From: Cenococcum geophilum
Taxonomy: Eukaryota
Assembly (NCBI GenBank): GCA_050273025.1
Contig: CP158635.1
Span: 5,146,001-5,210,000 of the forward strand
Length of the DNA stretch: 64,000 nucleotides
Direction of reading: 5' to 3'
In this document: positions 4,512-64,000 of the stretch, one piece after another
Layout: every line of letters begins with the position of its first letter
Numbering within the stretch: position 1 is the stretch's first letter
Notes under the pieces: model-generated
What the model was told of the DNA's origin: nothing
Seen by the model: the letters and a program-made list of their open reading frames with translations, nothing else
Database searches by the model: none
Position numbers and translations under genes: made by a program

Positions 4512-5029
4512 TCACTACACACTTATCTTATTATTCTTTATCGCTTTTTATTTTATTTTATTAGTTTATTGTCATCTAATCCTATCCTAGTGTTTAATAG
4601 AATAGATATAATAACTAGGATTGTGTAATTTGTTTAGGGGGGCGAGGGGTAATAGGTGAGGTGAGGGTAAGGTAAAGGGTGAGGTAAGGGGTAAGGGTCG
4701 GTTATATAGAATAAACATCTTTCTTTATTTATTTGCACTAAATGTAAGATTCCCTACAGTTATCTAGTGTGTAAGGAAAGCTATGTGATATTAAATAGCG
4801 TTCTGCACTTTAAAAGCCATACTTAAACAGTTTATAAAATTAAGTATTGAGTTCTAAAGACTAATTCTATATAGCCTTTCTACCTTTATTAGGAAATAAG
4901 TATATTTGCGCTAGGAAGTTTAGTAGGGCTAGGAGAAGAGATGGGTGTGATTTGGCGGGGGTGTGATTTTTAGTGGGGGTTATTTTTGGTAGGGTCTATT
5001 TTTGACCTTACGACAAATTAGGTGTTCTA

Positions 5030-5470
5030 TTTTTAGTCTCCTAAAAGCCTTAGGCTTTTAGGATTAATTTTCTAAGGAGCTCCAAGTCCGAGTAGTAGCT
5101 ATGTCCCAGTAATGGTCTCCTAGTAGCCCTGGACTCCTAGGATTAAGCTCTAAGGAGCCTTTAGGTTTTAGGGGAATTAGTCTTCTAAGAACCTAAAGCT
5201 CCTAGGAGAATTAGTCTTCTAGAAGCCTTAGGTTCCTAGGGAATACGTTTTTAGGAGTTCTATAGCACTTTATAATGGAATAATTATTTCTCCTAGGATC
5301 GCATCCCTTCTGGGATCGGCCCTCCTGGACCGAAAGCCCTCCTAAAATTAAATCTCTTAGATATTAAGCCCTCCTAGAAGCCCTACCTAGATAATTCCTA
5401 GTGGCCTTAGGCTTCTAAGGTAAAGCTCCTAGTAGCTTTAGCCTCCTAGAAAAATTAGTCTCTTAGGAGC
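5030..5470. repeat. Degenerate short-unit repeat tract (CTCCTAGGAG / CCTTAGG cores)
   Basis: Recurrent cctagg, ctaggag and gccttaggct words with no ORF. Confidence 0.5.
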
Positions 5471-6039
5471 CGAGTGCTAGTAATGGCAGCCTCTAAAAAT
5501 TATGCGGCTAAAAAAATATGCTGCCTATAGAAAGTGTGCGGCCGCAGCGTCTGGGAGCAACTAATAGCCTAGGAGCATTACCTAAGAGTAATTTATTTCT
5601 GGTGGCCTTTCCTGTTATATAGCCTTGTTATTTTTGGCAGAATATTTAACAGCATTTAAGCTCTTGGCCGGGGTATCCGGAGGGAAATATCCTCTTGGGA
5701 TGGGGTGACCTGCTTGGCGCCGTGCCCTATTATCTGCAGCGGACAAACAGTATCCCAGTATACGTTTCGATTTGAGGACGCTTATGATATTGGGTTCTGA
5801 ATTTCGAGCGTAACGCAAATTTATTGGGATGTATATATAATGGACAGGTGTAGTTAAACAACGTACCCCTAACCAACTATTGACAAGAATAAATGTAAAG
5901 AGAAAGGATAGCTGAATTTTAAACGTATATCTGCCCATGTGCCAAAAGGGCGTGCTTTCTGTAGAGCTAAGTGTAGGACTGCAAATTATTAAACTGGCCT
6001 CCTCTTATGAAATTATGCTAAAATTCTACATTTGTAGTA

Positions 6040-6225
6040 AAAAGTCTAACTAGTAAAAGCGTATGACCGGTAAAAAGTTTGACTAGTAGAGAGTTTGACT
6101 AGTGAAAAAGCCCGACTGGTAAAACCGCGAGACTAGTAAAACGTTTGACTGGTAGAGAACTCTAAATAGTATAAAGGTTGGACTAGTACTAAAGTTAGAC
6201 TAGTACAAAGGTTAGACCAGTATAC
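6040..6225. repeat. ~17-bp minisatellite (GACTAGTACAAAGGTTA-like)
   Basis: About 10 units with GACTAGTA/GACTGGTA core at roughly 17-bp spacing. Confidence 0.8.
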
Positions 6226-6829
6226 GAAATCTTGCTGAATTGTAACCAGGTAAGTATAGCTGACTTCCGGGTTCCCGTGCTTAAGGGGTTGCGTAGGTCC
6301 AGTTTTAGGCCCCTCTTAGGATTGTTTTCTAGCGCATTCTAAAAGATTGGTCTCGCAGCAACCACAACGTGGTGCGCGATAAGAGGATACAATAATGCAT
6401 ACCCGAAAGTTTTGTGGTGCATATGCAGCGCCAAGTATGTCTGGCTTGAGATAAGGAGCGACGCAGAAGGATTTAGTTGACTTAGCAACCGCGCCACGCC
6501 AATCTACTTTGCCTTATGATCGCCACAACGCCGAGCTGAAGATCCAACGCGCCAGTCTAGGGCAGAATAGCTTCTTGCCCGCTTGCTATCTTTGTTCTGA
6601 GAAAATAGTACGCAAATAAGGGTATAGCTAGAACGGGTTGGCCATCCTTCTTGCTAGCGGTGGCGACTTGTTACTTTTACTAAAGTTGAACTACCAAAAC
6701 GTTAACAAAAGTACCGCGTTTAAATCTATGGTAATAAGATATATTAGGCGCGGTAGAAAGAAGGCAAAACAGGTAAGACTTAGACTAGTTGTGACTTTCT
6801 GCAGACTATTATTCTCCGGATGTAACCGT

Positions 6830-7260
6830 TCGTCAGACTAGTTGTTCTCTAGACGTAACTGCTCTCCAGACGCGACGGCTCCAGACGTGGCTATTCCAGA
6901 TGTGGCTGTCAGACGTGGCGTTCTTGCTCTCCAGACGTGACTGTTCTCCAGACGTGGCTGTTCTCTAGACGTGGCTGTTCTCCAGACGTGGCTGTTCTCC
7001 AGACGTGGCTGTTCTCCAGACGTGGCTACTCTCCAGACGTGGTTCTCCTATTTGGCGCTGCCAAGAGGACTGGTCATTTTGGGCCAATTGGGCATCCGAT
7101 AATTCTCCAGACGTGGCTATTCTCCAGACGTGGCTGTTCTCCAGACGTGGCTGTTCTCTAGACGTGGTCCTCCTATTTGGCGCTGCCAAGAGGACCGTCA
7201 TTTTGGGCCAATTAGGCATCCGATAACCCTCCAGACGTAGCTGTCCTCCAGACGTGACTA
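6830..7260. repeat. 17-bp minisatellite CTCCAGACGTGGCTGTT with a twice-repeated ~60-bp insert
   Basis: Many near-identical units. The insert tcctatttggcgctgccaagaggac...ggcatccgataa occurs at ~7045-7102 and ~7170-7226. Confidence 0.95.
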
Positions 7261-8117
7261 GGATCTGCTAACTACGGTTAGCTAAAAATAGAGGGTCCTA
7301 GAATTGGGTTCTAAGAATGATATTTGAAGCGCAGCTGAAAACTTATGTAAGTTATGATAAATAACCTGTTCTCCCGTAGCAAATATTATCGAATAGGCCA
7401 TATAGACATGTAAAAGGTACGATTCCTTGAGCACGAACGAAGATTCGTAGCAGAGAGAAAGGTATAGTTTCTAGAAGTTGATGCTTAGTTAAGAGCTTGG
7501 TTTTTAAAAGTTATTGCTTAAACAAGCTTCTGCGGCGCTGCTGGTGGATTTAGGCAGCAACTGACATGGGGATTGTATTAAAGCGTTGGAGTCCCGCGAA
7601 ACCAGCTTCCGCCTAGGCGCAGCTGTTCCTTTGCTTCTCAACCAGGATCCTTTTTTCCTAACTAAATTTGGTTAAGTGCCAAGTGTCTAATTATGGTACC
7701 TGGACCGGCCTTGCTATCGGCAACGTGTCCTTTTTACTTTTCGTCCTCAGCCGTATAGCCCTCAGTCGTATAGCGGTAAGCCTTTGCTGCCTCGTAGCAC
7801 GGCGTGATTTACTTTGTTCCCAGAATATAATCTTATTCCTCTCTATTTCAACTATGGCTTGCATTGGGACTTCAACGGTGGGATCTCGTGTCAGGACTTC
7901 GACAAGAGCAGAAATGTGGCGGTGCGGCGGTGCTTCGGGTATGGGCCGTTACGGAGCGCTAAAACGCCTCTCAACAAGGGTATGGCCGTAGCGGGTCGGC
8001 CATCCTCCCTGCTAGCGGTGGCGGCATCAAGTGCCAAATCATCCTCATTGTGTATATAAAGACATCCTACATTCTGCAAATAGAATAACTTAATTACAGC
8101 TTCCAAATACAGAGACT

Positions 8118-8588
8118 CTACAATAACCACGGGACAAACTTAACACATTGAGGATTGGGCAGGCTTAACGCCCTCTCCTTATCAGTCCAGCCGTTCTGAA
8201 ACTTGGAAAAATAGTCACATTCTCCCGTCGCACACGTCCAAAACCCCAACCCAGGCATGCTACTCTCAGCACCCGCTCGATCCTGACGACTGGCGGCGCC
8301 ACAATAGCAGCGTGGGTTACTACCACGTATTCCACGGTCATCGTCCCATGTAATCCATCTTTTGTGGTGATCTTGTAGGCCTTGACTGCAATTCCAGTGG
8401 CAGCGGACGCAGATGTAGTACGGTCGGCCGACATTGCCATTTTGATTGCCTGTCACGGTACATCGATATCGAGGCCTCCAGCCACAGCGGCGGCAGAGAG
8501 GAGAGTTAAGAGGAAATTGGGGCTGTAGTGGTCGGCTTAGTGCGTGCAAGATTTCGGACATTGGAACGTCTACATTTACGTTAAGCAA
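8118..8588 (-). CDS. Small GRF-type zinc finger protein
   Basis: Open ORF with CRRC...NGNVGRPYYICVRC, WITWDDDRGI, NPRCYCG...SRQDRAG and GFWTCATGECDYF. The start is uncertain; there may be an upstream exon from ATG 8661. Confidence 0.8.
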   Translation of the reverse strand: MLNVNVDVPMSEILHALSRPLQPQFPLNSPLCRRCGWRPRYRCTVTGNQNGNVGRPYYICVRCHWNCSQGLQDHHKRWITWDDDRGIRGSNPRCYCGAASRQDRAGAESSMPGLGFWTCATGECDYFSKFQNGWTDKERALSLPNPQCVKFVPWLL

Positions 8589-9416
8589 GCTCTGTCAGGT
8601 ATACTTGCGGGGACTAACTAATATACGTAGTGCTACTGCCTCCCAAGGTCTGAACGAGCATTGTTGCGGCCATTAATCCGTCAAACTGCGTGGAATACCG
8701 TCCGGTCAACGTCGATGCAACAAGGCGTTGGGATGTCAACGCCCTAACCTGCGACGGCTGGAGGGGCATGATGGATGATGCGTGTTACATAAGCAATGGT
8801 CTAGGATTGAACCTATATTTTATTGGCTGCAGCCCCGGCTTGACACCAGCTGCTCACGTTAGCTAGACCAGTTCTGCCCATAATAAGAACGGGCGATTCT
8901 ACAGTCGCTAGCGAAATCGGCTTCCGCCCAAGTGCAGGTGCAACATCGCCTGTAAGCAAAAGGCTTGGCGCCCCACTTTACATATCTAGTAAGGCGCCAT
9001 GCTTGTTTGCACGTGATTTGCCACGGTACGAGAAAATACTTCTCTATCACAGTATGAGCCCACAGGGGTGTGCGGGTCGGCCGCCCTCCCTGCTGGCGGG
9101 GGCGAGTTTAAAGTATTTATGCTTTAATAGTCTGCTGTAAATACCGCTAAATATGCTGCCGCTGAAACCGTTCCGTGCAAAGAGGAAGTCGCCTTGCAGC
9201 CAAGCATGTGGCAAAAGTATTCAGATTCACCTCACGCAGCAGTCTCGGCAATGAGCTTTACCCAGAATAGTCAAACGCCATGCTCAGCCCGACTCTGACC
9301 AAGCATCCATAATGCAGGTAGACGGAGCCTATAACTATGTAGACCATACCTCATAACTTGACATTGAATTCGTGTATCCATCACTTACTCCGCAAGATTT
9401 TCAAATACGAAGCCGT

Positions 9417-11060
9417 TCACACGACTCGCACGTTGAGCCTCTGTCTCACTACGTAGTCACTCTGAATCCACCCAACTCCAATCCTCGTATACTCGCCATC
9501 CACACTGGTCGGTCTGACAACTAATATGTAGTACTTTTTATCCCTCAGCCCATGCTCATTCCCATGAAACTCCCTCCCGACAACAACACACCGTTCATCA
9601 TGAAGGTCTCCACTCGCCTCGAATACCTCCATCATATGCCATCCATGACCAAGATGGCACGATCGAGGTTTCGTACCCAATCCGCTTCGTCTTCTTTCCG
9701 TCAGACCTCTGCCATAGGAGATTCCTGTGAAGGTACCGCTGAAAGATGCCGTATCTGCTTTCACACCCTATAGCGCGTGCAATACGGGCCTCTAACCCGG
9801 ATATTGCAACACATCTGTCAGTTCCATCTGTCAAGCCACGCTTCGAGTAGCCCTCGGAAAGAAAGTAAATGAATTCCATGGTACGTTGGTCGCCCGATGC
9901 AAGGAGCCGGTCCGGGAAGTTTGGATCAAGCATGAAGAATTCTTTTCGAAGGGAGCTGAGTAGAGTACCTGGGTTAGGAAGATGTGAGGCTATTAAATAT
10001 TGTTGAGCTCTTACCTTTCCAGTCTAGTAAGGTTTTCGCAGTAAACCCCGGTTCCACATTCAAAATATGTCTGATTGGCGCTAAAATGGATAGTTCGTCG
10101 TGACAAAACTCTTTCTTGCATTACCCAGGCTCGCGTGTTAAGCCGAGCCTTCTCCACATCGTTGTCAAAATCATCAATGTCGGTGCAAACATAGAATCAC
10201 CGGCCTGAATTGTCTTAAACATAAACATACTCACTGCTTACGTCCCGATCAAGGAATCCCGCATTTAAGTTGACAGCCGAAGTTGCAGCAATCGTGCAGT
10301 AAGCCGAAGCGAAGACGCCTTCCATACATTTGGCCTCGTGCTCCCAATCTTTCTGGTTCCACTAAATTGTGCAAAGTGAGTCGATCCGGAGGTATTGGAC
10401 ACCAAGTTCTCGAGTCACCTGGATGGCGTCACGAAATGTCTTTGGTAGCTCAGATAAACTAAACATTCTCAGCCGTGATTCGATATTGTCGTCCGTTGTG
10501 CAGAACTTGAGTTTTTCCTCTTTGGTGGGTATGCCCCAGCAATGGGACAACGCGACGTATTTCATTCTGTCGTTTTCATTGGGACGGTAGAGACGCAAGA
10601 CATTACCCGGATCCTTCGGACCGCCGACGCAGAGGAGTCTCGTTGGCAATTCTGTATTGGATTCAACATGGTGGTCATTGCACTTGTGGGACCTATCGCA
10701 CCAACGAAGCCATGCGCGAAGTAGTGCAAAACGTGCAGGATTTTCCGCTTCGGGTAGGACTGGGAAGCTGATCTGGACGTCTTGACCAGTATCAGCCAAA
10801 CATTCTGCGGTAGATATATGCAATAAGTAATGGCTCTGCCTAGCGCATGTAAGTTGAAGGTACTAACCTGCATCAGAACACAGCCGGAGAATTCGAGGCC
10901 CGTCGCTCCCTATTTTTAACGCTGGCAATTCCCGAACGATTTGAACATTTAGTTCATCATTACAGTGGCGTTTAACTGTGCGGAGGAGCAGAGCGCAGAG
11001 CCGGCAATTTTCTCCAGCAACACTGACTTTAGAAAGATTAATGTTGCAATCAGCAGCCAC
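9417..11060 (-). pseudogene. HET-domain (PF06985-type) gene remnant, 5'-truncated, with stops and a frameshift
   Basis: LPTRLL, YVALSHCWG, LPKTFRDAIQVTRELGVQYLRIDSLCTI*, LNTRAWVMQERVLSRRTIHF and VPSWSWMA motifs. In-frame stops at ~10362 and ~10200-10220, a frame break near 9600, and introns near 10810-10865 and 9970-10013. Confidence 0.9.
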
Positions 11061-11186
11061 AAGGTAAGTTGAATCGGTAGCACACTCGATGGCAAGCGCT
11101 TAAAGAATTCCAAAGCAAATTTATTGTCGAAGGTATGGCGCCAGCTGCCGAGCTACATTCATATTAGTCCCTGTTCAAAGGCAGAC

Positions 11187-18948: not shown

Positions 18949-19180
18949 ACGCCACGAAAACAACCCTGTGGCCGGTGCGGGTCGGCCGCCCTCCCTGCTA
19001 GCGCAGGCCAGGTGTAAGAATCTTACTCGCAGCGCAAGGCTGCGAGGATGTGCTGCGCCGCAGGTTTAATTCACACGTGACTTAGCCGGGGTGGCAGTGG
19101 TTCTTTTCACGTGATTTCCCAATTGTATATAGTATATTCTTGGCACTACAAATTTTAAGAGCCGAGCCACTAGATAAATC
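18949..19180 (+). repeat. Left arm of a ~230-bp inverted repeat (partner 29172-29406)
   Basis: Colinear reverse-complement match, with small indels and RIP-type changes mainly in the partner. Confidence 0.9.
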
Positions 19181-19309
19181 AATCAATCAACACTTGATAC
19201 CAAGGTAGCCACAAAGGAGGACGCTACAATATATCGCTAATCCACGGGAGACCACCAACAACATTACATCCTATTTCGACAAGCTATCCAACTGCTTCCT
19301 TTGACTGAA

Positions 19310-21915
19310 TCATTGTATTTCAAAAAGTTGTCTCTCTCTTTCAGATTTCTTCTGTAGCTCACAGGCCTCCCCGTTCATCATACCGTGAATATAGCATTCT
19401 CCTATGAGCTTGTAGTGGTACTTATCGGCATCACTATTCTCATTAACGATCTTCCGGAGAACAACAGGTACGCTACAGCCATATAGTATGCAGATACTTA
19501 ACGGCATTAACACGATGATTAGATCGATCAATGTAGATAGGCTGGAGATACTTACAGATCTCCAACCTGAGTGGCTGCTGGAGCCAACCCTAGTAATTGA
19601 AGCCCTCCTTCCGATTTTGGAGAGTCAGTCGTAATAAGTCTTTTATTCCACACCACAGATTGCACCCGTTGCAGATAGTCTTTTACCACACGCGAAAAGC
19701 CGCTATCAATCAAGCTGCCGATATCGAGAACATTATCCGTGCCGAACTTTCCTGATTGCTGGAAGGCATATCCGCAAAGCCGTTCGTAGTACGATGGCGC
19801 TCTGTTCCCACTGGAATCTCTATTTGCAGTAAGTGTCCTCCAAAAGCGCTCAGGTGGCGGTGATGAAACTCCATCCCACCCCACGAATCTTGTCCACTTG
19901 AGCGGGATACAGGCTTTGAGAGCTGACGGTTGCACCTTTTGGATCGACTCCAAGATAAACCCGTCTACAGACAGGCTCTTAGCGCACACCCCTTGTCCAA
20001 ATTCCCACGAGAGCATCCGGCTACCTACTGCAAATCCTGCGCTATATTGTCTTCTACCAGGACCCCGTAACCCAACCAGCGAATCGGCGTTGATACGATA
20101 GTATTCTCTGTTAGGACCAATTTCAAATGCAGCGTCGGATAGATTTCCAATCCATGACGGGAGGCCCTCGATCTCCTTTGGTACCCAATGCTGACAAATA
20201 ATATCGATACATCCAGATTTCAAAATCGTATGACGGACAAAATCCTGGCACACTTGGAAAAATGTCTTGGAATAGTTAACTGGGAAGTTTTGCGTCTCCA
20301 CTGCCCCGCTGAAGGCTTTCTGCGGGGACTTGTATCCCGACCGTGCATCCATGGCGAGAGGTAGAATTGCGTATATAATGTCATGAGGCACTGAGGCTTT
20401 AAATGCTGTCAAATTGAGAACAAGGTTTTCCAAACTTTGGAATCGCTTTAATATGGTTCCGTGATCTGATTTTTCAAACAGCCCCTCAGTGACATCAACA
20501 AGACGAGCGGCACCCGAGGTAGGGATACTTGCCCAAGGACGACTTTCATCGTTGGGAAGGACCCTCCCGTGTATATCGGACAGCCTGTAAACATGACCCC
20601 TCACAAGTCCTATAGTAAAGATGAATTCAGGCCATGCTACCTCACTGCTTCCGCAATGCAGAGCCGCCTGTTTCGCAAGAGCGATCTCCTGGATTATCCA
20701 CCGGCGGCTAAACCAAGGCCTCCTCAGCAAAGCTGATAAAGCACACCATTGTCGGGAGTATCTACCGTCCAATAAAAGATCGTCGGAACGTTCAATACAC
20801 TGTTGGACGAGTTGAATGAAGTCCATTGCTAATCCACTGTCATTTTCCTCCTCTCCAATCCATACGCACACCGAGCTTGCTTCTTGATATATCTCAGTCA
20901 TCATCCGTACCTGGGAGCTCTTTTCTTCAAAATCGTCTTGATTGATACAAACTGTATCAACCCAAAGGAATCTTGCAGTATCTAGTCGGCGGAAATGCCT
21001 CAAGGCCGATTCAAGAGTTGGCTTAACAGCGAACAAAGAGATTTTGTCACCTCGCCGGATTTTGATAATCGATTTGCGCTCCTCCTCGCCCCAATGCCAT
21101 GACAAAGCCTCGTATGACCCACCCCCCAAAAGGGGCCTTTCTGAAAGCGAGCAAACAAGCTCCGTGCTCTCAGCGCCAGGAAATAATTCTATAATGCGAA
21201 TCCAAGATCCATCCGTCAGAGGTGAATAACTGTACGGTTCGATGACACGAAAAGTACCATCTCCTGTCTCTTCAACCTCTATACGGCTATGATTTCCTTT
21301 GGATGTAATCCGAACATTTCGCCCAAGAGAACCGAGCACTCTGCCTACATCGTAGCCAGCATTAAAAGGAACCCTTGATATAAAGATTGGCTGTTTGGGC
21401 GTAAACACGAGATCGGCACCGGGTTTGAGTTCAACTGCTGCGACTGAGTGGATCCTGCCATCACACTTTCGGGCCAGTCCAACGACGTAGCTGTTAGGAT
21501 ACGGGATTTTGTTGTCGGTAATGATCTTAAAAGTTCCACTATCGGCATTGCTGCCGGCATCCTTAAGTTGTAAGCCTCCGTCCTTTGGAGTCACGAACAG
21601 CTGTGTGCCATCGTTCTTAATAGTCCCAATTTTGACAGGTTCAAAATCGATGATGGAAACCTTCGTTTCCTGGTCCAACTTTGAGCTAGCGTTACTGGAA
21701 ATGCCAGCGAAACCATAGAAGTCCGATGTGTACTTAAAGACCGATTCACTGTTGTTGCAAAGCGGATCAGTTATAGACCACAAGATCTGGCGAGTCTTTT
21801 GGACGCCGCCTCCAGTGACGTTTGGAGGTTCAGAGTAGACAAAGTATTTCCGCGAGTTATGTGTGTCCGCTGTCTTATTCCGGATGGCCACTCCGTAAGT
21901 AACTGGATCCGCCAT
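19310..21915 (-). CDS. Intact HET-domain protein (HET-6-like) with an extra ~225-aa beta-rich N-terminal domain
   Basis: Long open ORF with YEALSWHWG, LWVDTVCINQDDFEEKSSQVRMMTEIY, RPWFSRRWIIQEIALA and LPSWI. A 59-nt intron at 19497-19555 (GTAAGT..AAG) joins a last exon ICILYGCSVPVVLR...LIGECYIHGMMNGEA. ATG at 21915. Confidence 0.93.
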
Positions 21916-22547
21916 GGGTGATTGCAGGTTGTCTGATAGGACAAATGACAAGATGCTAGCAGGTATCTCGATGCTGTCTGGCAGGTGAGATAAGACGAAG
22001 AGATGAACCTCAGAGATTCCTAGGCGGTCTAGTAATTATAAAGGGGTATGCGGGGCAGAGGTAGCAGAGTGTACTAGCGGAATGGGCTCAAATTGGCTGC
22101 TGCCAATAGCACCGGCCTTTTTGGTGCCAATTACAGTAGTGGTCAACAGTTTTGAGCCCGGGTGACTTCCGCGCATTTTGAGAATCACCAACGACAACAA
22201 GACACGACACGACACGACACGAGTTAATCCCCTTGGCAGAGAAAAATTCAAATTTTACGTCACGTTTTGTGTGATCTAAGCGAAAATCCGAGAGGCTAAA
22301 TCCGTCGGCGAGACTAAAGCGGGCCTAGAGCGGCCTTTAGCGGCAACTAAACCTAAGAGGAACTAGATCTAATTAAATAACTAAAATAGTAAAATCTAAA
22401 AAGAAAAAGCGATTGTTAATATAATAGAGATTTTTTTTTAAAAACTATTAGCTACTATCGAGTTACTAATCTTTAAAAGAGTATATTAATTAAAATTTAA
22501 AGCTATATATTATCCTAATTGGCGTTACTAATAGGATTGATCTTTTT

Positions 22548-22999
22548 TGTTACGGACCTAGTACTATAGACGGTAGGACTACTGTTCTAAGACCTTAGGG
22601 TGATGGCAGAGGCTATGGAACTAGTCGAACCATGGGACGAGGGGTAGGCGAGTTATATGGGAGATTACGTGCTGAGGGTTTAGTACGTGGGAATGTAGGA
22701 ACACGGGACGTACCGACGTACCGAGTTCAGTACGCGGGAAACGTGAGGACGTGGACGTACTGACGTACTGACGTACCGACGTACCGAGAGGATTTCTTAG
22801 GAGTTAGGTTGTGTATTTAAAGGACCACAGTCCCTACCTAGATAGTTCTCTCGTTGTAGTGAATCTTAGGATATAATTGGAGTTAACCTGTTGGGCGACT
22901 ACTCCACCAGTTGTGATACAGAACCGTTGTCTTATTGTTTACCTACATACCCAGCCCATTAACAAGTCCACCGTGGTATTTCCTATAAGGCTCGTTACA
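22548..22999. mobile_element. Solo LTR (452 bp)
   Basis: TGTTACG...CGTTACA termini, flanked by a TTTTT 5-bp duplication (22543-22547 and 23000-23004). Confidence 0.85.
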
Positions 23000-23429
23000 T
23001 TTTTAGTACTAATTAGCGGTTAATACTTCTTGACTTCTACCTTATAGAATAGAACTTATTAAAGGAATAGAAGGTAAGTTTATAACTAAAGTAAACTAGG
23101 TATTTAGTACTATAAGAAGAGATTACATCGGGAAAAAGTTTATAGGCTGAAATTTAAACTACCTATCAAGTAAAATTAAATACTACCAATTACGTCAATT
23201 GCCTGCTAAATAGCTGGTAGTTAACGTAGTTAATGTTATTAACGCATTTAATATTTTTAATACGTAGCCTACGCGCAGCCTACGTGTTATAAACGCTACC
23301 TTAAATATATTACGGCTACTTAAAGAGGAGCTAGACAATATAATCTAGGCAATAGAAGTATAGGCCAGTATAAATTATATAGAACTATAGGATAAAGGTT
23401 AAGCGACGTACTAAACGTACCGAGCGTAC

Positions 23430-23977
23430 TTATGTTCTCTATACGCAATATAGATTAGTTACTTAGGAGTAAAGATATAGTCTATACCTAGTTTAACTTT
23501 AACGGCGGTAACTAGAGCGGGATCTCTATCTTTAGCCTTCCGGGTAACTCCGATAATACTACTACTAAGGGAAATATTATTATTATATGCGATAGTAAAA
23601 GTCCTATTATTAGCGTTGCGGGTTTTAGTAGTCTAAATATTAATACCTCCATTCTGTTTATATATAAGTAGCTAGATACTATTATTCTTAATCGTTCTAA
23701 TTATAACCTATTTACTATAGGCTACTAAAATATTATTTCTGGGCTTTAATACTAAGCTATTAGAGTAACTAATAAAGCTAAAGAACTTTAATATATATTT
23801 AAATAAATTATGGCCGCCTTTACTAATAGCGTTAGTTTTATACCATATAATTAAGGAAATTTTATAGATAACACCGCCTAAGACCTCCGGAAGTTTAGAG
23901 TAGACAATATATTATCTCTTTACATCTCCGCCAGTTCCGTTCTCAATAAATACCTTATAGGTAGATGTTTTTTCCAT
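23430..23977 (-). pseudogene. 3'-truncated RIPped copy of the stand-alone domain gene
   Basis: ATG at 23977 gives MEKTSTYKVFIENGTGGDVKR..., the reverse complement of 25397-25944. Lacks the last ~40 codons. Confidence 0.85.
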
Positions 23978-25944
23978 TTTAGAGGGTTAAAGAGGGCTAT
24001 AGGTAGTCTGGTAGAGTATATAATTAACTAAATATATAAATCATATATAAGGATAAGTTATGCCTTTATAATCTACCCCCTCTATAATTTCTTATAGCCC
24101 TCTTATTAAGAGTTCCTAAAAATTTAAGAGAATTTTACTATTAGGGACTAGCTTTATAGTAACTAAATTTTATTTACCTATGTAGAAGCTAGCTAGTGCT
24201 AGCAGTTCTGGCCTATAGGCCTATAAAAGAGAGCATCTTTACCTTAAAAGGCTATGGCTGTATATAGGGGTGTAAAGCACTTTATTATAGACGTTCTACT
24301 TTATTATACTTTACTAAATAAAAAAAATGCCGTATATAATGTAGGGTTATAAAAGCCCTTTATTTTATAGAGTTTAGGCAGCTATTAAAAAGCATCAGCC
24401 TCTTCGCGAGAGTAGTGGCGCCCGCGCTGTAAGTTTATATAGTAGTTAATAGAAACGACTTTAAATATAGTAGTATACGACCTTCGGTATCCCACCCCCT
24501 ATACGCGGCGGCATCTAATTCCGCTACAGCGGCACCTAAATTAGTATATAGAGCTAGTAGGAAGGAGTGTAACGGGAGTAGGGGCTAGATGGATCTTGCC
24601 TACCTTAAATCTAAAGCTATTCGCGACGCCCCCTTCTTATTAAATCGTGATATTACCTCTAGATCTTTAGTTACCCCCCCTCTTTCTCTAATATAGCTCT
24701 AAATATAGGCAATTAGTAGTATACCTTTATTAAGGTCCTTTTTATAGCTAGCGCTAGTAAATATATATGCACCTATTAAGCTAACTGCTCTCTATTACGC
24801 GGGGTTATAGGAAATACTGCAATGCTCCGGTAATTAGGCTAGGGAAGGTCATATACTACTATATTTAAAGTCGTTTCTATTAACTACTGCATAAACTTAC
24901 AGCGCGGGCGCCACTACTCTCGCGAAGAGGTTAACGCTTTTTAATAGCTACCTAAACTCTGTAAAATAAAAGGCTTTTATAACCCTATATTGTATACAGC
25001 ATTTTTTTTATTTAGTAAAGTATAATAAAGTAAAACATCTATAATAAAGTGCTTTACACCCCTATATACAGCTACAGCCTTTTAAGATAAGGATGCTCTC
25101 TCCTATAGGCCTATAGGCTAGAACTACTAGTATTAGCTAGCTTCTGTATAGGCGAATAAAATTTAGTTGCTGTAAAGCTAGTCCCTAATAGCAAAATTCT
25201 CTTAAATTTTTAGGAACTCTTAATAAGAGGGCTATAAGAAATTATAGAGGGGGTAGACTATAAAGGCATAACTTATCCTTATATGTAATTTGTATATCTA
25301 GTTAATTATATACTCTACTAAACTACTTAAAAACACCTCTAAGCTTTATCTTATCTACCCTACCAAACTACCTATAGCCCTCTTTAACCCTCTAAAATGG
25401 AAAAAACGTTTACCTATAAGGTATTTATTGAGAACGGAACTGGCGGAGATATAAAGAGACGATATATTATCTACTCTAAACTTCCGAAGGTCTTAGGCGG
25501 TATTATCCATAAAATTTCCTTAATTATATAGTATAAAACCAACGCTATTAGTAAAGGCGGCTATAATTTATTTAAATATATATTAGAGTTCTTTAGCTTT
25601 ATTAGTTACTTTAATAGCTTAATATTAAAGCCCGGAGACGATATTTCGGTAGCCTATAGTAAATAGGTTATAATTAAAATAATTAAGAATAATAGTACCT
25701 AGCTACTTATACATAAATAGGACGGAAGTATTAATATCTAAACTACTAAAACCCGCAACGCTAATAATGGGACTTTTGCTATCGCATACGATAATAATAT
25801 TTCCCTTAGTAGTAGTATTATTGGAGTTGCCCAGAAGGCTAGAGATAAAGATCCTACTCTAGTTACCGCTGTTAAAGTTAAACTAGGTATAGACTATATC
25901 TTTACTCCTAAGTAACTAGTCTATATTACGCACGGAGAATATAA
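23430..25944. repeat. Long inverted duplication: arms 23430-24485 and 24844-25944, ~360-bp spacer
   Basis: The arms are reverse complements differing mostly by transitions. The right arm has a small extra insert near 25316-25365. Confidence 0.95.
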
Positions 25945-26068
25945 TATCTATATAATAATTAATCCTTAGTCTATTAAGGTATTTAGCTAAGTAGAGTTTA
26001 AGGGCAGTTTAATAGAGGTGCATATTAAGGAAAATAGTAGTGGTACCTTTAATATTTAATATAAGTGA
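25397..26068 (+). pseudogene. RIPped stand-alone gene (223 codons) homologous to the N-terminal domain of the neighbouring HET protein
   Basis: One frame from ATG 25397 to TGA 26066: MEKTFTYKVFIENGTGG..RRYIIYSKLPKVLGG...KNNST*LL...NANNGTFAI...VTAVKVKLGIDYIFTPK*LVYI...KENSSGTFNI. It aligns end to end with MADPVTYGVAIRNKT..RKYFVYSEPPNVTGG...KNDGTQLF...NADSGTFKI...VAAVELKPGADLVFTPKQPIFI...EETGDGTFRV. Confidence 0.88.
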
Positions 26069-26178
26069 TGATACCAGGTAGGTTTTTATATCTTTAGATT
26101 AGGGATATTACTAATGGGTAATACAAGGTCTATATTTGCGGTTAAGCCGCCTAGGCTACTTTACATTATTAAGGGGTT

Positions 26179-28228
26179 TTAGCCGACTGTTAATACAGAG
26201 GTTACGGTTATAGCTTTTTTTTTTAGTAGAGGAGGGACGTTTTCTCTTGTTTGTATAGGAGAAGCCTATATACCTAGCATGTGACTTATTATATTAAGAG
26301 AACCTATCTACTTACATAATTTACATTTATTTATATTAGCGATTACAACCTTTTATAAACCGGCTTTTATATTTCTATTCGTTTTTAACGCCGTATAAAT
26401 AGTTCTAGCCAACTTTATATATTGAAGTGTTCCTGCCAATCTCTACTTCAATAGGCTTGAATTTTTATATGGCTCGTGCCCGCTTTACCTTTAGCTGTTA
26501 AACAGTTAGTAAAGCTATATACGCGAATTTCCTATATAGTTATTCTTTTCCCCCTAATAACCATTGTAAGAGGTAACCGTTATTAAGCTAAAAACCAAGG
26601 CATATAGTACCTAATTCCCTAGCTAATACTATGTTGGCCGTCTAAACTAAACTACTATACAAGCAAACCCGATAGTCTTTCTGCGAATTTGGTCCATAAC
26701 GATATATTATAGAGTTTCTTGCCCAAATTAGCATTCTCTAAGCCGTATTTAAACTCCCTATAGGCGCCCTAAATTAGCTCCAACTAGTATAAGGAAATTT
26801 GCGAAATATGCCTATTTGTAGCGAATGGAGGCGATACGAAGTATTATCCCAGTCTAGTAATAATCCAGTAGCGAGGCTTAGCATTTAAAAAAACTTATTA
26901 GAGGGTATAAGTAATCTAGAGCTTATTTAGATATTAAGTACATGGCTAAACCTCTATGGCGGCTAGAGCTTAGTCCGGCTTAATTTAAGTATATTAATAT
27001 TGGATTACCGCTCATTTGCCTCTTAAGCGGTCTCTTATATCTATAATATACTCTATATCACCTTATATACGCCAATCTATATCCGTATATATCTTCTAGC
27101 GCAGTCTCTCTAAGAACGACACCTTTAAAAGTAGGGTATATCTAGCTCTGGTTCTAATTAGTAGGACATACTATATTGGCCTATAGCTCGCTTATTAGTT
27201 AAAAGTAAGTGACCTTATTAGCTAACTGTATGTAAGGCTAAGATAAAATGCCTTAAGATACTGTATTCTCTTCTCTAGTTTATCCACGATTTATAGCTAA
27301 TTACTATTAGCTGGTTAGCATTCATCCTAGCTCTTAAGAGGTGACCTAGCTGCTTTCACTGCCACTACTATCTCCAGCCTTAAGGTCGCGGCAACTTATG
27401 TCTTATACCACTTAGTTCAGTTTTGCAGTTAAAAATCCCTAATAGAATAGTAAAGGCATATCTTATTGACCTGGCGTCGATTACTACTATATTAAGCTTA
27501 GATTAGGGGTAAATGCCTTACCCACTTCGTGTATTTAATAAGGCTCTAAATCCTTTTATAGTAAAACAGAGTTCTTATTCTTAATTGCCCTGTTTAATAT
27601 ATCTTAACCATTATTAGTAACCTGCTCCGAGTGCTTCTTTAAACTATATTATAAGCTTGGAAACTTCTAGGTATATTGCTTTTATATTATTACCTTATAG
27701 TATCTTTTTCATCCTAACTTCTAGATAGGCTTAGAACATAGCTGCCCAAGTTATCACTTATGGCCTCAATATTAAGCTTAGCCAAAATATGGATATTATA
27801 TATATGGGTAGGAACTATAAAGATAATGTAAATGTGGGGGTAGCTATAGTGACGAGGGCAGACGCGGAAGGTGCTAGTAACGATCAAGAGGTGTTCCTCC
27901 CTCTTTAAAGTTTAATAGTAGGATTTGCTGGGACAATAGAGGTATAGGTTTATTGCTAGGTTTAAGGTCTAGCAGTTATAAGGTTTATGTCAGTTTTCCT
28001 AGGCGAAAACCGGGTTTTATTTGACAACCAGCCTTAAATAAATATTGGCTTCTTTTACGCTCAAAACCGTTAAGTAGATAAATAGGTTATGCGACTCGTT
28101 AGGGCGGAACCGCTGAGTATAACCATTGGTTTAACCTTTCCTAATCCTGATTATTCTATCAGTATTCGCTCTATACGCGTCAACTTTAATATTTAATAAA
28201 ATTCGTCTATATCGTCCTTTAACGCCAT
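26179..28228 (-). pseudogene. RIPped hypothetical gene of unknown family
   Basis: From ATG 28228 (MALKDDIDEFY...) there are long protein-like frames whose stops are mostly TAA/TAG. A CKLC motif lies near the end. No domain recognised. Confidence 0.5.
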
Positions 28229-29171
28229 TCTTAAGAATATAAGAGAATAGGAGGCCACTTTACTCGGTCCCATCGTCTAACTAATCTTCGCGCGGTTTAA
28301 TATCCTATCTATCACCAGGCTTGCTAATTAATTAATTTAATTTAATTCAATTGACGCCTTAAATTAATTAAATTGAAAGCTTTATAAGCAGAGGGCTTAG
28401 TTAATTAAATTGATTGAATTAATATTGCAACGGTTGCAACTAAATTTAACTAGTATAGTAGTTAGTAATTATTACAAGTCTTGGCATAGTGTTAATATAG
28501 AAAGACCTACCTACTAACGCCTAGATTGTTTTTTACCGTCGTTTCTTTCGCCTTTGCTCTTAATATAGGCCTATCGCGAGTCTTAGTATAGTGTTAAGTC
28601 ACCTTTCTACCGTATATATCCTGTTCCTTCTACAGGCGCTTTAACTGCCCATCTACTATATAAACTATATCTTCCTTATCCCACGATCCTACCGCCATTA
28701 AAGCTCCAATTATATTAGGTTGCAGTCGTGCGCAATTAGTAGTAAGGAGTAAGCCTATAAGGCTAAATATACGTTCGGGGTCTGACGATATTAGTGGAAT
28801 TATTATCAAATCGAGAGCTATATGAGCGAGTCGTTAATATTAAGTTCCTTTTATTCTGGCTTGCTAATAAGCAATTGGATTAGTACAGTGGACGTCCTTA
28901 ACCGCCTTATACGTAAGATAATGCCTTATATAGATAGGTCGCTTTGTCCGATTCTTATGGGACGTACTTAAAGAGTTTACATCGTATATTTGTCGTGTCA
29001 TTTTTGTCTAGTATTAGGCGAAGCAAGCGAACGCTATTAGGCGTCTATAAAAGCGGAGAATAACAGTACTAAGACATGGCACAAGACATAGCACCCAGAA
29101 ACTTAAACTTGTGTAGATTTAATAGCCCTAATGGGTAGTAATAAGCCTAGTTATTATCTGCGATCAAGCGT

Positions 29172-29406: not shown

Positions 29407-32400
29407 AGGAGCCCCGATGGCTGCTTCGACCCCTAAATGCGTATTAGCAACACTACCTCTAAACCCGCTAGCAGCTTTACTAAGACGTATAAAGAAACCG
29501 AGCGCGAAGGTGTAAGAGGCCTAGTAGTTGCTGAGGACACGAGCCTAAATATTAGTATAGTTTAAATAGTAGATAACCGCACTATAAACCGGACTATAAG
29601 CTATATAGTATATACTGCCTCTATTCCCTATAGTAAGAGTCTCTACCTTACCTAAACGTAAAGGAGGAGGTATTAATTATAATGAATTTTATCGACTTAT
29701 TAAAAGCCTTAAAGAAACTATAGTATAGCAAAGCAATATTATTATAAACTAGAATAGTATTATTAAGAGCATTAGAAATGACCTTATAAATATTAAATCG
29801 GAATAGCGAAGCCTTAAAAAGCAAAACACTAAACTCTAAAAGGCCATCCGGTCCTTATAAGCGCAACTAAATACTCCCTTAGCTCTAATATAATTATAGG
29901 TATTAGTAGCGGCTAGTAGAGGCATGGCAGGGTTAGAGATAACCTTGCTATAAATAATAAGCGCTAGGAACCCTAAGGAACCTAATTAGCAGCTAGTAAT
30001 AGACGTTAGCTAAGCGGGTAAGGAGGTAATAGAGAGGGTAGCTACTACTAAAGCAGTAAAGTAAACTATTGCGTAAGGTATAAAGGATGTTAAGGGGCTT
30101 ACGGGAGCTATACTTAAGGACTTCCGCGTATGGCGAATAAGCGATAGCGTGAGCATTATTAGATTCTCGGTGGAAAAAGATAAAGAAGCTGTGTTTAGGT
30201 AGACGACTACTTAATAGCTTAAACTGTATATCCCTAGCGCGAGGCTTATTAGACCTAAGTAGTATACAGTTAAGGCGGACTGGGTTAAAGTACCTTTAGT
30301 AATGGATATTAATAGCGGAAAAGTAAGTAAGTCAGCTATAGAGCGCTTTGGGGTAGAGAATGGGGTAGAGGTATGTATAATAAGATAGCTAGGATAACTA
30401 AGGCCGCGCGGCTAGTACGTGTTAGTAATTATTAAAGTGGCAATAAAGGAGGATGTAGAAAAGCTGCTTACGTTAAACAACGTGTTATTTAGGGGAGGCG
30501 CGATTATTATATCACCATTTAAGGAGCGACGTACCCCTATAGCATACTATAAATGTAAAAGGTTTAGACATAGGGCTAGAGACTATATATAACCTAATAT
30601 ATGCGAAATATATAGGCGGGAAGGCTATCTCTGGTGTAAGACGGTAAATCTATACTATGTAAACTGCTAGGGTCCTTACTAAGCCTTATACTGTAAATAC
30701 CTAGTATATAGAAAAGAGATAAATAGGATTCTTATATAATAGCGCTATAAATAGAGAACTCTGGATCCTTTAGGCGAATATAAAGAAGTATAGGAAGGCG
30801 TAGTATGCGCTATATAATGATGAAGCGCTAGCGGACTTCTACTTTATTCTAGGCTAGGAGCCTTATTGCTTTCTCTTAAATAGGGAAGTGGTGCTAGCTG
30901 GCTTAAATCCCTAGTAAATAAGGTTCGTCCTAATAGGCAGGTAGCAGCGGTATTTTTTAGTTAGGTTATATATCTAGGCATTTAGAGAGCTGGCAGCTAT
31001 ATAGCTATAGGTAGATTTAGTAGACATTATGGTGGTAGTAGCGCACGTTAGCTAAAGGAGACTTATAATTATATTGGTATATATTTTAAATAGAGGTTTA
31101 AGGAGAACTAAGGAAGAGAACCTAGAGAAGCTCTTTAGCAAACTAGAGATAATTAATAGGCTAATCTAGGGTGAACTATTACGCGACCTATATACCGAGG
31201 TAGTAATCGTAGGTAACTTTAATTGGCACAATCTGCTATAGGGAGGAAGTTATATTAGTACCATATTAACACAGAAAGAAAGCGTACTAATTATTGACTT
31301 TATAGCGGACCGGTTACTCTAGAGCCTACTTCTAGTAGGAATACCTACGTTTAAAAGCGACGCGGGGCGAATATTAACAATTGACCTTATATTTATAACC
31401 CCGGGCCTAGCGAATAAACTAGTAAAGTGCGCTATCTAGGAGTATAAGTACGGATTAGACTATAGAGCTATCTATACTAGCTTCTAGGTCAATATAGACA
31501 CGTAGAAGAGCTAGGAGAGGCTGCTTATTAAGAATATAAACTAGGACAAGATATAAGAAGACGTAAAGTAATAGAAAGAGATAGGATTCCCTATAGAAGA
31601 TATAGACGAAATAGTTAACTACTTTAATAGGTGGGTTAATAAAGCCCTTAAAGCACACTGCTAATAGGCCAGACTATTACTGTATATAAAAAGATAGTGG
31701 AATAAAGACCTTATAACGCTGAGGAAGTTATATATATACTAGAGGAATAGAAATAGCGCGATATAGAGGTAAAGAAGGGATGACCCTAAGCTATATAATA
31801 TTGTAGTAAGAGCGAAGAAGCTTTTTTATAGGACTATTCGGCGATATAAAAAGCTCTATTAGGACGAATTTCTTAGTAACAGTAACAATATATAAAAAGC
31901 GTCGAAATACCTTAATCCGTAGGCTATATCCGCGTTCACTAAAATACCGCTAATTAAGAAGGATAGAGGATAGGGAGAAGTCGTTATAGAGAACTATAAT
32001 ATTGCAAAAAAACTACTCTAGGTATTCTTTCCGGTCCCGCCGCCGTGTAAATAAGAGGAGGAAGCTATAACTAGCTATAACTAATTGCTATAAAAGCCTA
32101 TCGCCAAATATAAGGTCGAGGTAGCTGTGTTTAGGGCTAGCCCAGATAAGGCTTCTAGAAGGGACGGCCTACTAGCTAGGGTATAGCGAGAGCTATAGCC
32201 CGTATTAAGTGGTAAAATCACCACTCTCTTTACCAAATTACTTGAGATAGGAAAGGTACCCTAGAAATAGAAGGTAGTAAAGATTATACCGCTATAGAAG
32301 CTAAAGTGGGGGGACTATACAGTAGCAAATAACTATAGGCCGATCTCCCTCCTCCCGACGCTAGGAAAAGCACTTAAATTACTAGTAGTGGAGAGGATAG

Positions 32401-34992
32401 TATACCTAGTAGAGGAATATAGCCTACTACCTAAGACGCACTTTAGAGCTAGGAAGCAAAGATTAACAATATATACGCTATCGTATCTCTATAAGGACGT
32501 ATTTAGAGTATAAAGAGGAAAGAAGACGCTGTCTCTAGTATTATTTAATATTAAGGGTATGTATAATAATATGGCTATAAAGCCGGAAATTAGGAGATTA
32601 TAGCAGCGTTAAATACCTTAGACGATTATATAATAGGTGCAGGACTTTTATATAAACTATTAAGCCTATATCCTAGTTAATGGATACACATTAGAGGTAT
32701 AGGCGCTCCTATAGGCGGGTCTCCTATAGGGATTAGCACTAGCCCTAATACTCTTTCTATTCTTTAATGTGGATCTTATATAAAACACACCTAAAAATAG
32801 CAGCTTTATAGCCTTTGTTAATGACTACTTAGTATAGGTTATAGGCCCTATAGCGGAGGAAAACACATAGATTATCTAGGGCGAGATTATACCAATACTT
32901 AAGAAATGGGAGAGGACTAGTGGAGCCCAATTTAAAGCGAAGAAAACGTTATTTATCTACCTTACTAGATATAAAGAAGCAGGCAGGGATACCACTACGC
33001 CGCTCCAATTTAAAGGAAAAGGGATCCCCCCGACTTAGGAAGTTAAAATCCTTAAGGTGATCCTTAATAAGGAGCTACGGTTTAAGGCGCACCTAGTAAA
33101 TAAGGTAGGCAAAGCCACTAAGGTAGCGCTAGCGTTGCGCAGATTAAAGGGACTGTAGTTTAAGAGCGTTAAGCAGCTAGCTAAGAGCTTAGTCCTATTA
33201 GTAGTAGACTACGCGTTGCTAATATGGTACCCGCTTATAATATAAGAGTTAATACAGCTCCTCTAGTAGGCGCAGAGGATTACGGTATAAGCTATTATTA
33301 GGGGGTTCCGCTTTATTACCCTGCTAATAGTAAAAGTAAAAGCTAGCTTACTCCCTTTTAAGTAAAGGCTGCGTAACCAGGCTATCGCGTTCTGGGTATT
33401 AATCTATAAACTAGGCAAATTATATCCTTATTAGATGATTTAAAGACAAAGGCTCTACAGACGGCACCGGTCGCCGCTTTAGAGGATAGTAGAGATATAT
33501 AAGGATATCCAGGTAAATAGGGTGCTAGAGGTTAAACCGTATATATACCCGCTGTAGGTAGCTAAGCTAAATATAGTAATATGCAAGGACGAAGAGTATA
33601 CTTAAGCTATTATTAAAGACTATAAACTAGGGTAGGTTAACATATACGTTAATATATCGGTACGTAATAGTAGGGCAGGAGTTAGCGTATATACTACGCC
33701 ATCTAAAGTAACGCTTTTAAAAACGGTAGCGGGCTTTAAGTAGGCCGACGCCTACCTAATAGAGCTTCTAGCAATTAGCGAGGCAGCTAACTGGCCATAG
33801 GACCCTATATACACGGCTATTAACTAAGTAGGTTTTCCAATACCTACTTCTAGTATAAGAATATTCTTTAACTCGTAATTAGCATTACTATTAGTATAGA
33901 GCTAGAGGGCTAGAGTTTGCTAGGAAATAGTTATAGAGATCTTAAAGAAGCTCTAGCTAAACAATATTACGCTATACTAGATTCTAGGCTATTTAGGATT
34001 TATAGAAAACGAGAAGGCCAATAAGCTTACTAAAGTAGCGATAAGACTAGAGAGCGAAGAGCCACTATAGAGAGACGGCCTCCTATAGTACCTTATAACG
34101 CAAGCCTTAAAAAAAGCTAAGATAATAATAGGACCGCTTCTATTAGGAAGATCTAATATAGGTAAGTTTATAAGGAAGATTAACGTAGTACTCTACCTTA
34201 GAAAGGCTATAGGATTATACTAGTAGCTAATTAGCCTAGAAGCTACTATCTTTACGTAGCTACGGACTAGTAAGTTATTTCTAAAGGAATATCTCCACAA
34301 AATTAATATATTAGAGACGGCGTTATACAACTATAGGCTTATAAAATTAATATAGCACTTCCTTTTCTTTTATAGGAGGTGGGCGCAGCAGAGGATTAAA
34401 CTAAGAGAGTAATATAGAGATCGATTTAGGGATCTATTATATATATTAGGAGGCTACTTACGTAGATAAGAAGGAGGCAGGAGTATTAACGGCCCAATTA
34501 AGCGCTAGAAGCCAGACATTAGCGTAGTTAAAGCTATAATTAAATTTATAAAGGAGACCGGACGTCTATACCTAAGTATATAAAATATAGAGAGTATAAA
34601 AGCCAATATTAATAAGTAAAGACTCCTAAGAATTCCTTCTCTAATTATCTAACCAAATATACCGCGAGCCTCCTCTATACATACCTCTACTAGTACGTTG
34701 CCGATTAAGAAGCGTATAATACTGGAATAGCCCTATAGACACAAGGCGTTAAAAACTACTTACTTAAGCTCGCCTTTAAACTCTAACTTTCTTTAATAGT
34801 AACACATTACTTTCCTTTATTTTTTCCTTAGTTAAGTATAGTATTAGGTAATAGATATATAGTTCTTATAGTTGGCTTCTAAACTAGAGCAAGTATATTA
34901 ATAGCAGGAAGTATTTAGTTAGCGCTCTGTAACGGCCTATACCCTAAATAGTACATGGCTATAATAGAATATATATATATATATATATATAC
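29407..34992 (+). mobile_element. Full-length RIPped Tad1-like LINE (ORF1 with CCHC knuckles; ORF2 APE endonuclease, RT, RNase H), 13-bp TSD
   Basis: Degraded knuckles at ~30545-30710, GNFNWHNLL*GG, TIDLIF, YRPISLLPTLGKAL, GLL*GLALALILFLFF, AFVNDY and LY*ILGY..NEKA..L. (TA)n/(CATA)n tail. GTTTTCGTGGCGT at 29394-29406 and 34993-35005. Confidence 0.95.
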
Positions 34993-63720: not shown

Positions 63721-64000
63721 CTCATTGTAAGTAGTAGAATTTCATACCATTGTATTTGATTCTGGAGCAACTTCCTTTTCTTCTTCACAAGAACAGATCA
63801 TTACGGTGCTATTTGGAGGGTTCGCCACCCTCAAAGCTGACTTGTCGACTCAACGGGGCGTAAAGACAGCGCCAATCTCACGCTGACAACAATCATACCT
63901 TCGCTGTCTTTCCAGCCGCTTTGTTGTGGTTGGGGGAATAGCTGACGTACTCGAGAAGACAGCAAATTAGGCCAACTCATGTATTGCGAATGATACAACA

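Follow-up and report, generated by a model that had tools for sequence, protein, structure and literature searches.

Does a HET cell-death gene whose N-terminal domain recurs as a free-standing gene next door still belong to a working effector/partner pair? The question is raised by positions 19310..26068 of a 64,000-nucleotide stretch of the Cenococcum geophilum genome (GenBank assembly GCA_050273025.1, contig CP158635.1, positions 5,146,001 to 5,210,000; hereafter the window). Here a first-pass annotation had proposed such a pair, carried as mobile cargo. Our data do not support a working effector/partner module at the locus today. Instead, the locus is probably an intact two-module cell-death gene, X-HET, lying next to the remains of an old paralogue of its N-terminal module, which we call domain X.

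To define the HET gene we started from the open reading frame (ORF) list, which holds a 787-codon ORF at 19552..21915 (-) and, after it, a short one at 19310..19507 (-). In the sequence, the two are connected by a 59-nucleotide intron at 19555..19497 that has GTAAGT as donor, CTAAT as branch site and AG as acceptor. The X-HET gene, 19310..21915 (-), consists of exon 1 (21915..19556) and exon 2 (19496..19310) and encodes 848 amino acids. Its spliced translation is identical, letter for letter, to the database protein P0001 (OCK98442.1), labelled 'HET-domain-containing protein' in C. geophilum 1.58. The HET (TIR-like cell-death) domain occupies residues 268-410 (20686..21114 (-)) and matched Pfam PF06985 over profile positions 1-146 of 146 with 116.9 bits (cut-off 22.5, E 1.2e-33). 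It was the sole Pfam match in the 787-residue ORF, in which no NOD, NACHT or NB-ARC domain was found; the precomputed Pfam list of P0001 contains PF26639 and PF06985. In other proteins the HET domain alone is reported to be sufficient for death (PMC12881547). In X-HET, the HET domain is most likely the death executor. Domain X, putatively all-beta and RhiA-like, comprises residues 1-225 (21241..21915 (-)), and residues 1-235 of the protein were without a match in the Pfam library used. A structure model of full-length X-HET, based on a two-sequence alignment, reached a mean predicted local distance difference test score (pLDDT) of 29 and was not used for any conclusion.

The first 225 residues of the HET protein are homologous to a separate 223-codon frame at 25397-26068, as the first-pass annotation had claimed. 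A tblastn search of residues 1-240 against the window aligned HET residues 1-224 with 25397-26056 at 31% identity (E 1e-17), and the shared motifs listed earlier are visible in this alignment. The same search aligned HET residues 1-180 with 23977..23444 (-) at 34% identity (E 2e-20), a second copy that had been overlooked. We also searched the six-frame translation of the whole window with a profile hidden Markov model (HMM) built from 46 family members, which gave exactly three significant matches and one further match at E 3.2. Besides domain X of the HET gene (243 bits), the profile matched 25409-26083 over the full length of the model (138 bits, E 1e-43) and 23435-23968 over model positions 2-183 (109 bits, E 1e-34). 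The full-length free-standing X gene, 25397..26068 (+), is a single exon of 223 codons plus a stop, has no frameshifts or indels against the family profile, and starts 3.5 kb upstream of the X-HET start. The shorter copy, 23430..23977 (-), is a truncated inverted duplicate holding codons 1-182.

Both free copies are dead. Frame 1 of 25397-26068 (+) contains 224 codons and 10 stops, namely the terminal TGA and 9 premature stops, and the truncated duplicate contains 5. The premature stops of both copies are all TAG or TAA, each reachable from a glutamine, arginine or tryptophan codon via C>T or G>A, and the stop at codon 45 of free X stands at a family tryptophan position. This is the signature of repeat-induced point mutation (RIP), which the first-pass annotation had proposed for the free gene, and base composition agrees with it. 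The GC content of 25397..26068 is ~0.29-0.32. The TA/AT ratio is 1.5-2.0 from ~22000 onward compared with 0.6-0.8 within the HET gene, and (CA+TG)/(AC+GT) lies at 0.26-0.49 across 22500-26000. The composite RIP index runs from -0.3 to -0.8 over the HET gene and from +0.5 to +1.7 between 22000 and 27500, with a sharp switch at ~22000; the AT-rich state runs on to ~56 kb. Thus the HET gene is not RIPed, and both free X copies are pseudogenes in RIP-type DNA. RIP has been reported over 73% of the C. geophilum genome, where it is 'leaky' near genes (PMC12910237). With its transition-only decay, low GC content, position at the edge of a large RIP region and 'leaky' RIP, this side of the locus is an ordinary example of the RIP-inactivated duplicates in this species, with nothing unusual about it (PMC12910237).

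The two free copies belong to an inverted duplication at 23430..25944, with arms at 23430-24492 and 24837-25944 and a 344-nucleotide spacer at 24493-24836. Each arm comprises ~0.5 kb of upstream DNA and the first 182 X codons. The arms share 91.5% identity across 1063 aligned bases, with 87 transitions, 3 transversions and one 45-nucleotide indel between them; within the coding part, 50 of 50 differences are transitions. At the 87 transitions the unmutated C stood in a CpA context 35 times, in CpG 26 times, in CpT 21 times and in CpC 5 times. Since the codons up to 223 are found only in the right-hand copy, this copy is the parent and the left arm a partial inverted duplicate. The history that we propose would begin with an old local duplication of X, after which one copy was fused to HET and the other stayed free-standing. 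A 1.1-kb piece of free X, with the promoter region and codons 1-182, was copied in inverted orientation. Lying beside a RIPed repeat field, this inverted duplication would have exposed the solo gene to RIP, which killed it, and the HET gene, just beyond the RIP boundary, would have been spared.

To see whether these genes are expressed, four sequencing runs were compared with the locus: RNA contigs from a root metatranscriptome (X6) and from a second library (X8), a DNA run (X5) and a raw RNA run (X21). The RNA contigs of X6 and X8 span 19173-22431 with zero differences, which shows that the locus is transcribed, and they have zero depth in every bin from 23188 to 26600, i.e. over both free X copies. 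In the DNA run all 30 bins were covered, with a depth of ~5-17 on the HET gene and the duplication (5-10 on 25397..26068, about 6 on the HET gene). DNA reads are therefore present over the free copies, and their absence from the RNA contigs is not a mapping failure. This DNA run comes from another sample, and the genes of the window showed no differences in it. The claim of a working pair finds no support here, as both free copies carry premature stops and are missing from the RNA contigs. Together with the occurrence of X mostly in solo proteins and otherwise with partner domains of at least five kinds (see below), this argues against a pair that works today.

The same depth data bear on the idea that the free copies are junk, i.e. 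gene fragments brought in by transposable elements and historically unrelated to the HET gene. They sit on the margin of a 34-kb field of RIPed repeats with reverse-transcriptase, hAT-like and FunK1 remains. Moreover, a high-copy repeat fragment at 22660..23187, with an X5 word depth of 936-8822, sits between the HET gene and the duplication; a 156-nucleotide part of it (22837-22992) matches window positions 329-473. The low X5 depth indicates that the duplication itself is not a high-copy element: both copies are covered at single-copy level. In addition, the right-hand copy has its full frame of 223 codons, which runs collinear with the entire profile and free of indels, and two members of a 72-cluster family would very rarely fall by chance within 4 kb of each other in 178.54 Mbp. 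We therefore regard unrelated transposon-borne fragments as highly improbable.

At the 3′ end of the HET gene the RNA contigs revealed a spliced antisense transcript, 19173..19828 (+), with GT..AG introns at 19468-19522 and 19593-19658. The antisense joints are present in contigs of both RNA libraries at a depth of 768-991, compared with 261-324 on the gene body (2-3x). In the joined form neither strand holds a long ORF. The antisense RNA possibly reaches 22431, perhaps with a third intron beginning at the GTAAGT at 19829.

This transcript is one of the observations that would fit a former two-gene module, in which solo X and X-HET once made a functional pair whose partner was lost in this strain. 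The solo X might have competed for a ligand or target, or might have bound the X domain of X-HET to restrain or trigger it, and X-HET, kept quiet perhaps by the antisense RNA, would for that reason now be tolerated. Besides the abundant spliced antisense RNA overlapping the gene, such a past is suggested by two old paralogues of a rare family standing 3.5 kb apart in a 178.54-Mbp genome, by the intact X-HET frame beside RIPed DNA, and by the linked partners known for HET proteins, e.g. Bh/Bp at het-B (PMC10890737). It is opposed by the state of the solo copies, both dead and absent from the RNA contigs, and by the spread of X, which is mostly found in solo proteins and is fused to domains of at least four further kinds, so that nothing ties X to HET in particular. 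Furthermore, none of the 30 family clusters looked up came from Lachnellula, which is a weak test. On balance we consider a lost functional partner unlikely. A more specific version, an ancient co-inherited sensor pair, has free X buffering a ligand or capping the X domain and so setting the death threshold; strain 1.58 would have lost this buffer to RIP, and the antisense RNA would restrain the death gene. We hold it to be distinctly unlikely.

As the working-pair proposal had tied X to HET, we asked how widely the domain occurs. For a family census, 1.84 billion representatives were scanned in full with phmmer at E<=1e-3. The scan placed domain X in 72 clusters, mostly solo proteins of ~220 amino acids: 43 clusters measure <=260 amino acids (six of them fragments of <180 amino acids), 11 fall at 261-399 and 18 at >=400. 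Pfam was run on 32 of the 72 clusters (17 long ones, i.e. all but P0001, 8 of the 11 of middle length, and 7 short ones). The X-HET combination was found in just 2 of the 72 clusters, P0001 and P0002. Other fusions join X to ankyrin repeats (P0018), to VWA above the cut-off (P0048, P0063), to subtilase S8 (P0058) and, in P0020, to a PGAP1-like (lipase-like) hydrolase upstream of X; P0026 has a vWA-TerF-like match below the Pfam cut-off. The remaining long clusters had zero Pfam matches, and one long cluster is a 2809-residue bacterial invasin-like protein with a marginal match to immunoglobulin-type repeats. A specificity of X for HET thus finds no support.

The named members of the 30 clusters looked up were all fungal. 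The genera with X are Cenococcum, Lachnellula, Cosmosporella, Uncinocarpus, Orbilia, Ophiostoma, Fusarium, Podospora and Malbranchea, with one Naviculisporaceae and one Mycena, and an alignment-based search added a member from the lichen fungus Candelina. P0081, in the cluster of P0017, is labelled Mycena olivaceomarginata, a basidiomycete, so the family may exceed Ascomycota or the record may be contaminated. Word-index protein search fits X poorly, returning nothing for the X domain, P0001 alone for residues 1-235 of P0001, and 7 proteins for the family alignment. NCBIfam gave chance-level matches only against 46 members, metagenome scans with the single proteins P0014 and P0051 gave zero confirmed relatives, and comparison of the family profile with itself did not find an internal repeat. 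Judged by these architectures, X may be a portable binding or sensor module that is mostly solo and has been joined to several output domains.

Plant NOD-like receptors (NLRs) with integrated domains copy targets as baits. An integrated decoy of this kind would make solo X a cellular target or a binder of foreign molecules and would make the fusions of X with HET, ankyrin, vWA and S8 baits; the adjacency at our locus would only mark the birthplace of the bait. One and the same domain does occur both solo and N-terminal to several unrelated output domains, a bacterial homologue binds plant defence metabolites (PMC13490719), and C. geophilum lives in roots (PMC12910237). On the other side, the NOD domain is absent and the basis of the proposal is architecture alone, and we consider an integrated decoy very unlikely.

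Next, we aimed to date the X domains of the locus relative to each other. P0001 and P0002 of Lachnellula arida are collinear over X, linker and HET, with 60% identity over 534 residues, and are sisters in the tree (support 100/99). This indicates that the X-HET fusion arose once, before their split, or moved between them. P0001 comes from a Dothideomycete and P0002 from a Leotiomycete, and 60% seems high for a HET gene across classes. For the solo gene, a partial reversal of RIP was made by comparing the two dead copies and choosing C or G at transition differences. The resulting frame best matched the solo protein P0003 (34.8%, 124 bits) and then P0001 (33.5%, 106 bits). When identity was counted as RIP-compatible, i.e. 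when the aligned residue is encodable by any pre-RIP form of the codon, the solo copy reached 0.59 with P0003, 0.55 with P0001 and 0.49 with P0002. In the tree it shares a 27-row clade with P0001 (support 96/85), within which its placement is unsettled. Even with RIP allowed for, the distance of the solo copy from solo X proteins of other fungi is therefore no greater than that from the HET protein next to it, which bears out the earlier view of an old pairing rather than a recent duplication. The nearest relative of the X domain of the HET gene is that of the Lachnellula X-HET, with the dead solo copy about as distant as the solo X of other fungi. The C. geophilum genome measures 178.54 Mbp (PMC12910237), and assuming few family copies in it, we estimate that chance adjacency of two members of this rare family within 4 kb is improbable. 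A shared local origin explains the adjacency without functional coupling.

What might domain X recognise? An AlphaFold2 model of X from the 46-sequence alignment is all-beta with 16 strands (pLDDT 94.1, predicted template-modelling score 0.89). Foldseek of this model against PDB returned nothing at E<=0.001, the rows returned having template-modelling scores of ~0.1. A wide structure search gave generic sandwiches as its best matches (Z<=5.1, ~90 residues aligned). The family profile against PDB sequences reached a best E of 0.26. With hhalign, the 46-sequence family matched RhiA of plasmid pRL10 (90% probability, E 1.6e-6, 168 columns, 18% identity). P0075, which is 35% identical, carries a precomputed PF27136, the RhiA_N family in the protein Atlas, and RhiA_N clusters were within the top three feature matches for two X members (scores 0.93-0.95, 210-223 shared features). 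A tblastn search of P0075 against plasmids gave a single chance-level match. On these profile comparisons, X is best called a fungal RhiA-like domain, probably a remote relative of bacterial RhiA.

RhiA is abundant in the cytoplasm, and its function is unknown (PMC2275737); for its Pectobacterium homologue PSMB1a, a beta-sandwich of 'butterfly-wing' form, a 2026 paper reports binding of solanidine and of salicylic acid (PMC13490719). X has in common with RhiA (Rhizobium rhiABC) and PSMB (Pectobacterium) a length of ~210-230 amino acids and the profile homology over 168 columns; the fold described for them is a beta-sandwich, and the model of X is all-beta. Unlike X, these proteins are bacterial, stand-alone and encoded in operons, and the accessible parts of the two reports mention no death-domain fusion for them (PMC13490719, PMC2275737).

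Among HET proteins, the closest parallel is het-B of Podospora anserina, where BH combines HET with a HET-associated domain and, C-terminally, one with a lectin fold, and the adjacent gene encodes the PII-like Bp (PMC10890737). BH's lectin-fold domain sets specificity towards the product of the adjacent gene (PMC10890737). Both loci have a non-NLR HET protein, a beta-rich accessory domain as the likely recognition part and a closely linked second gene, and for both it holds that most HET genes of the kind are not proven incompatibility genes. Following the same logic, the X domain of X-HET would most likely recognise a small molecule or a protein, and HET would execute death. In contrast to het-B, the accessory domain here is N-terminal and RhiA-like rather than a fruit-body lectin, and the linked gene is a homologue of the accessory domain, and dead. 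Two-gene HET systems (het-B, het-c/pin-c, het-6/un-24) need two intact linked genes, whereas here the HET gene alone is intact. Similarly, HET-S/NWD2 and other NLR-amyloid pairs consist of adjacent genes that share a homologous segment, one of them death-related (PMC3321046). What the two genes share there is a short amyloid motif, and one partner is an NLR. At our locus it is a 225-residue globular domain that is shared; NOD is absent, and of the two partners one is a pseudogene.

Several observations weigh against our preferred interpretation, an intact X-HET gene beside the wreck of an old X paralogue, or against parts of it. Adjacency of X and X-HET is also expected from a functional pair. 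The approximately unbiased (AU) test did not reject a sister placement of the solo copy to the X-HET pair (p 0.129), which leaves the order of duplication and fusion open. RIP erased much of the signal in the solo copy and gave its tree row an odd composition. CpA, the commonest context of the transitions, accounts for just 35 of the 87. As to expression, the annotated sense intron junction of X-HET was unseen in the RNA contigs, where the only splice junctions recovered were antisense, and the transcription shown does not settle the strand of the X-HET gene body. In addition, among the 12% of the raw RNA run X21 that was read, not one read fell on the gene, a weak result. The link to RhiA consists of one profile-to-sequence comparison (the hhalign match), and PF27136 is absent from the precomputed Pfam list of P0001; ligand binding by the fungal X would be carried over from one bacterial homologue (PMC13490719).

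Finally, we examined the surroundings of the locus, which the first-pass annotation had suggested to be mobile cargo. Positions 22-64 kb were scanned with Pfam with stops read through, and the first 22 kb, scanned less thoroughly, as 10 chosen frames (>=98 amino acids) plus 8700-11099. The idea of mobile cargo found no backing: the 22-64 kb scans gave RVT_1, FunK1, DUF7025, a hAT piece and DUF6594, and no tyrosine-recombinase 'captain' had a Pfam match in the stop-read-through scans of 22000-64000, where element ends were not sought. A decayed reverse transcriptase (RVT_1) lies at ~32325-32994 (+) with E 2e-9, and a weak hAT dimerisation match under the Pfam cut-off at ~28681-28884 (-) with E 6e-4. 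These RVT_1 and hAT-like pieces are what is left of transposons in the RIP field that lies right of the free X copies. Further along, a weak PDDEXK_12 match under the Pfam cut-off was seen at ~37.5-37.7 kb, and two RIP-decayed matches appeared with stops read through, a Pkinase_fungal (FunK1) at ~48664-49890 (+), E 1e-76, and a DUF7025 at ~52760-53053 (-), E 4e-21. A DUF6594 gene at 62553-63741 (-), in non-RIPed DNA, is divided over three adjacent frames (introns or frameshifts). On the left side, the ORF 8121-8594 (-) encodes a GRF-like zinc ribbon (PF23549, E 4e-14). The stretch 8700-11099 contains a second HET reading frame at ~10113-10559 (-), which matches Pfam HET 1-146 with E 5e-24. It has three in-frame stops inside the domain, normal GC content and no X domain, and is a pseudogene 9 kb from the intact X-HET.

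HET genes number tens to hundreds per fungal genome, and the signals they sense are mostly unknown. Variable beta-rich recognition domains and linked partners have already been described for HET proteins. A literature search, largely at title level, found no description of an N-terminal RhiA-like domain joined to HET or of a fungal RhiA-like family joining ankyrin, vWA or protease domains, which agrees with the earlier impression that the architecture had not been described. If the sensor pair were true, fungal cell-death control would gain a new class of recognition module in the RhiA-like domains, whose bacterial relatives bind plant metabolites. At present, the value of the locus lies not in a new immune mechanism but in a new domain family and architecture and in a clean kill by RIP after a small inverted duplication. 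It offers a named, foldable candidate recognition module that recurs on HET, ankyrin, vWA and protease proteins, and the sole characterised relative of this module binds plant defence compounds, which is suggestive for a root symbiont.

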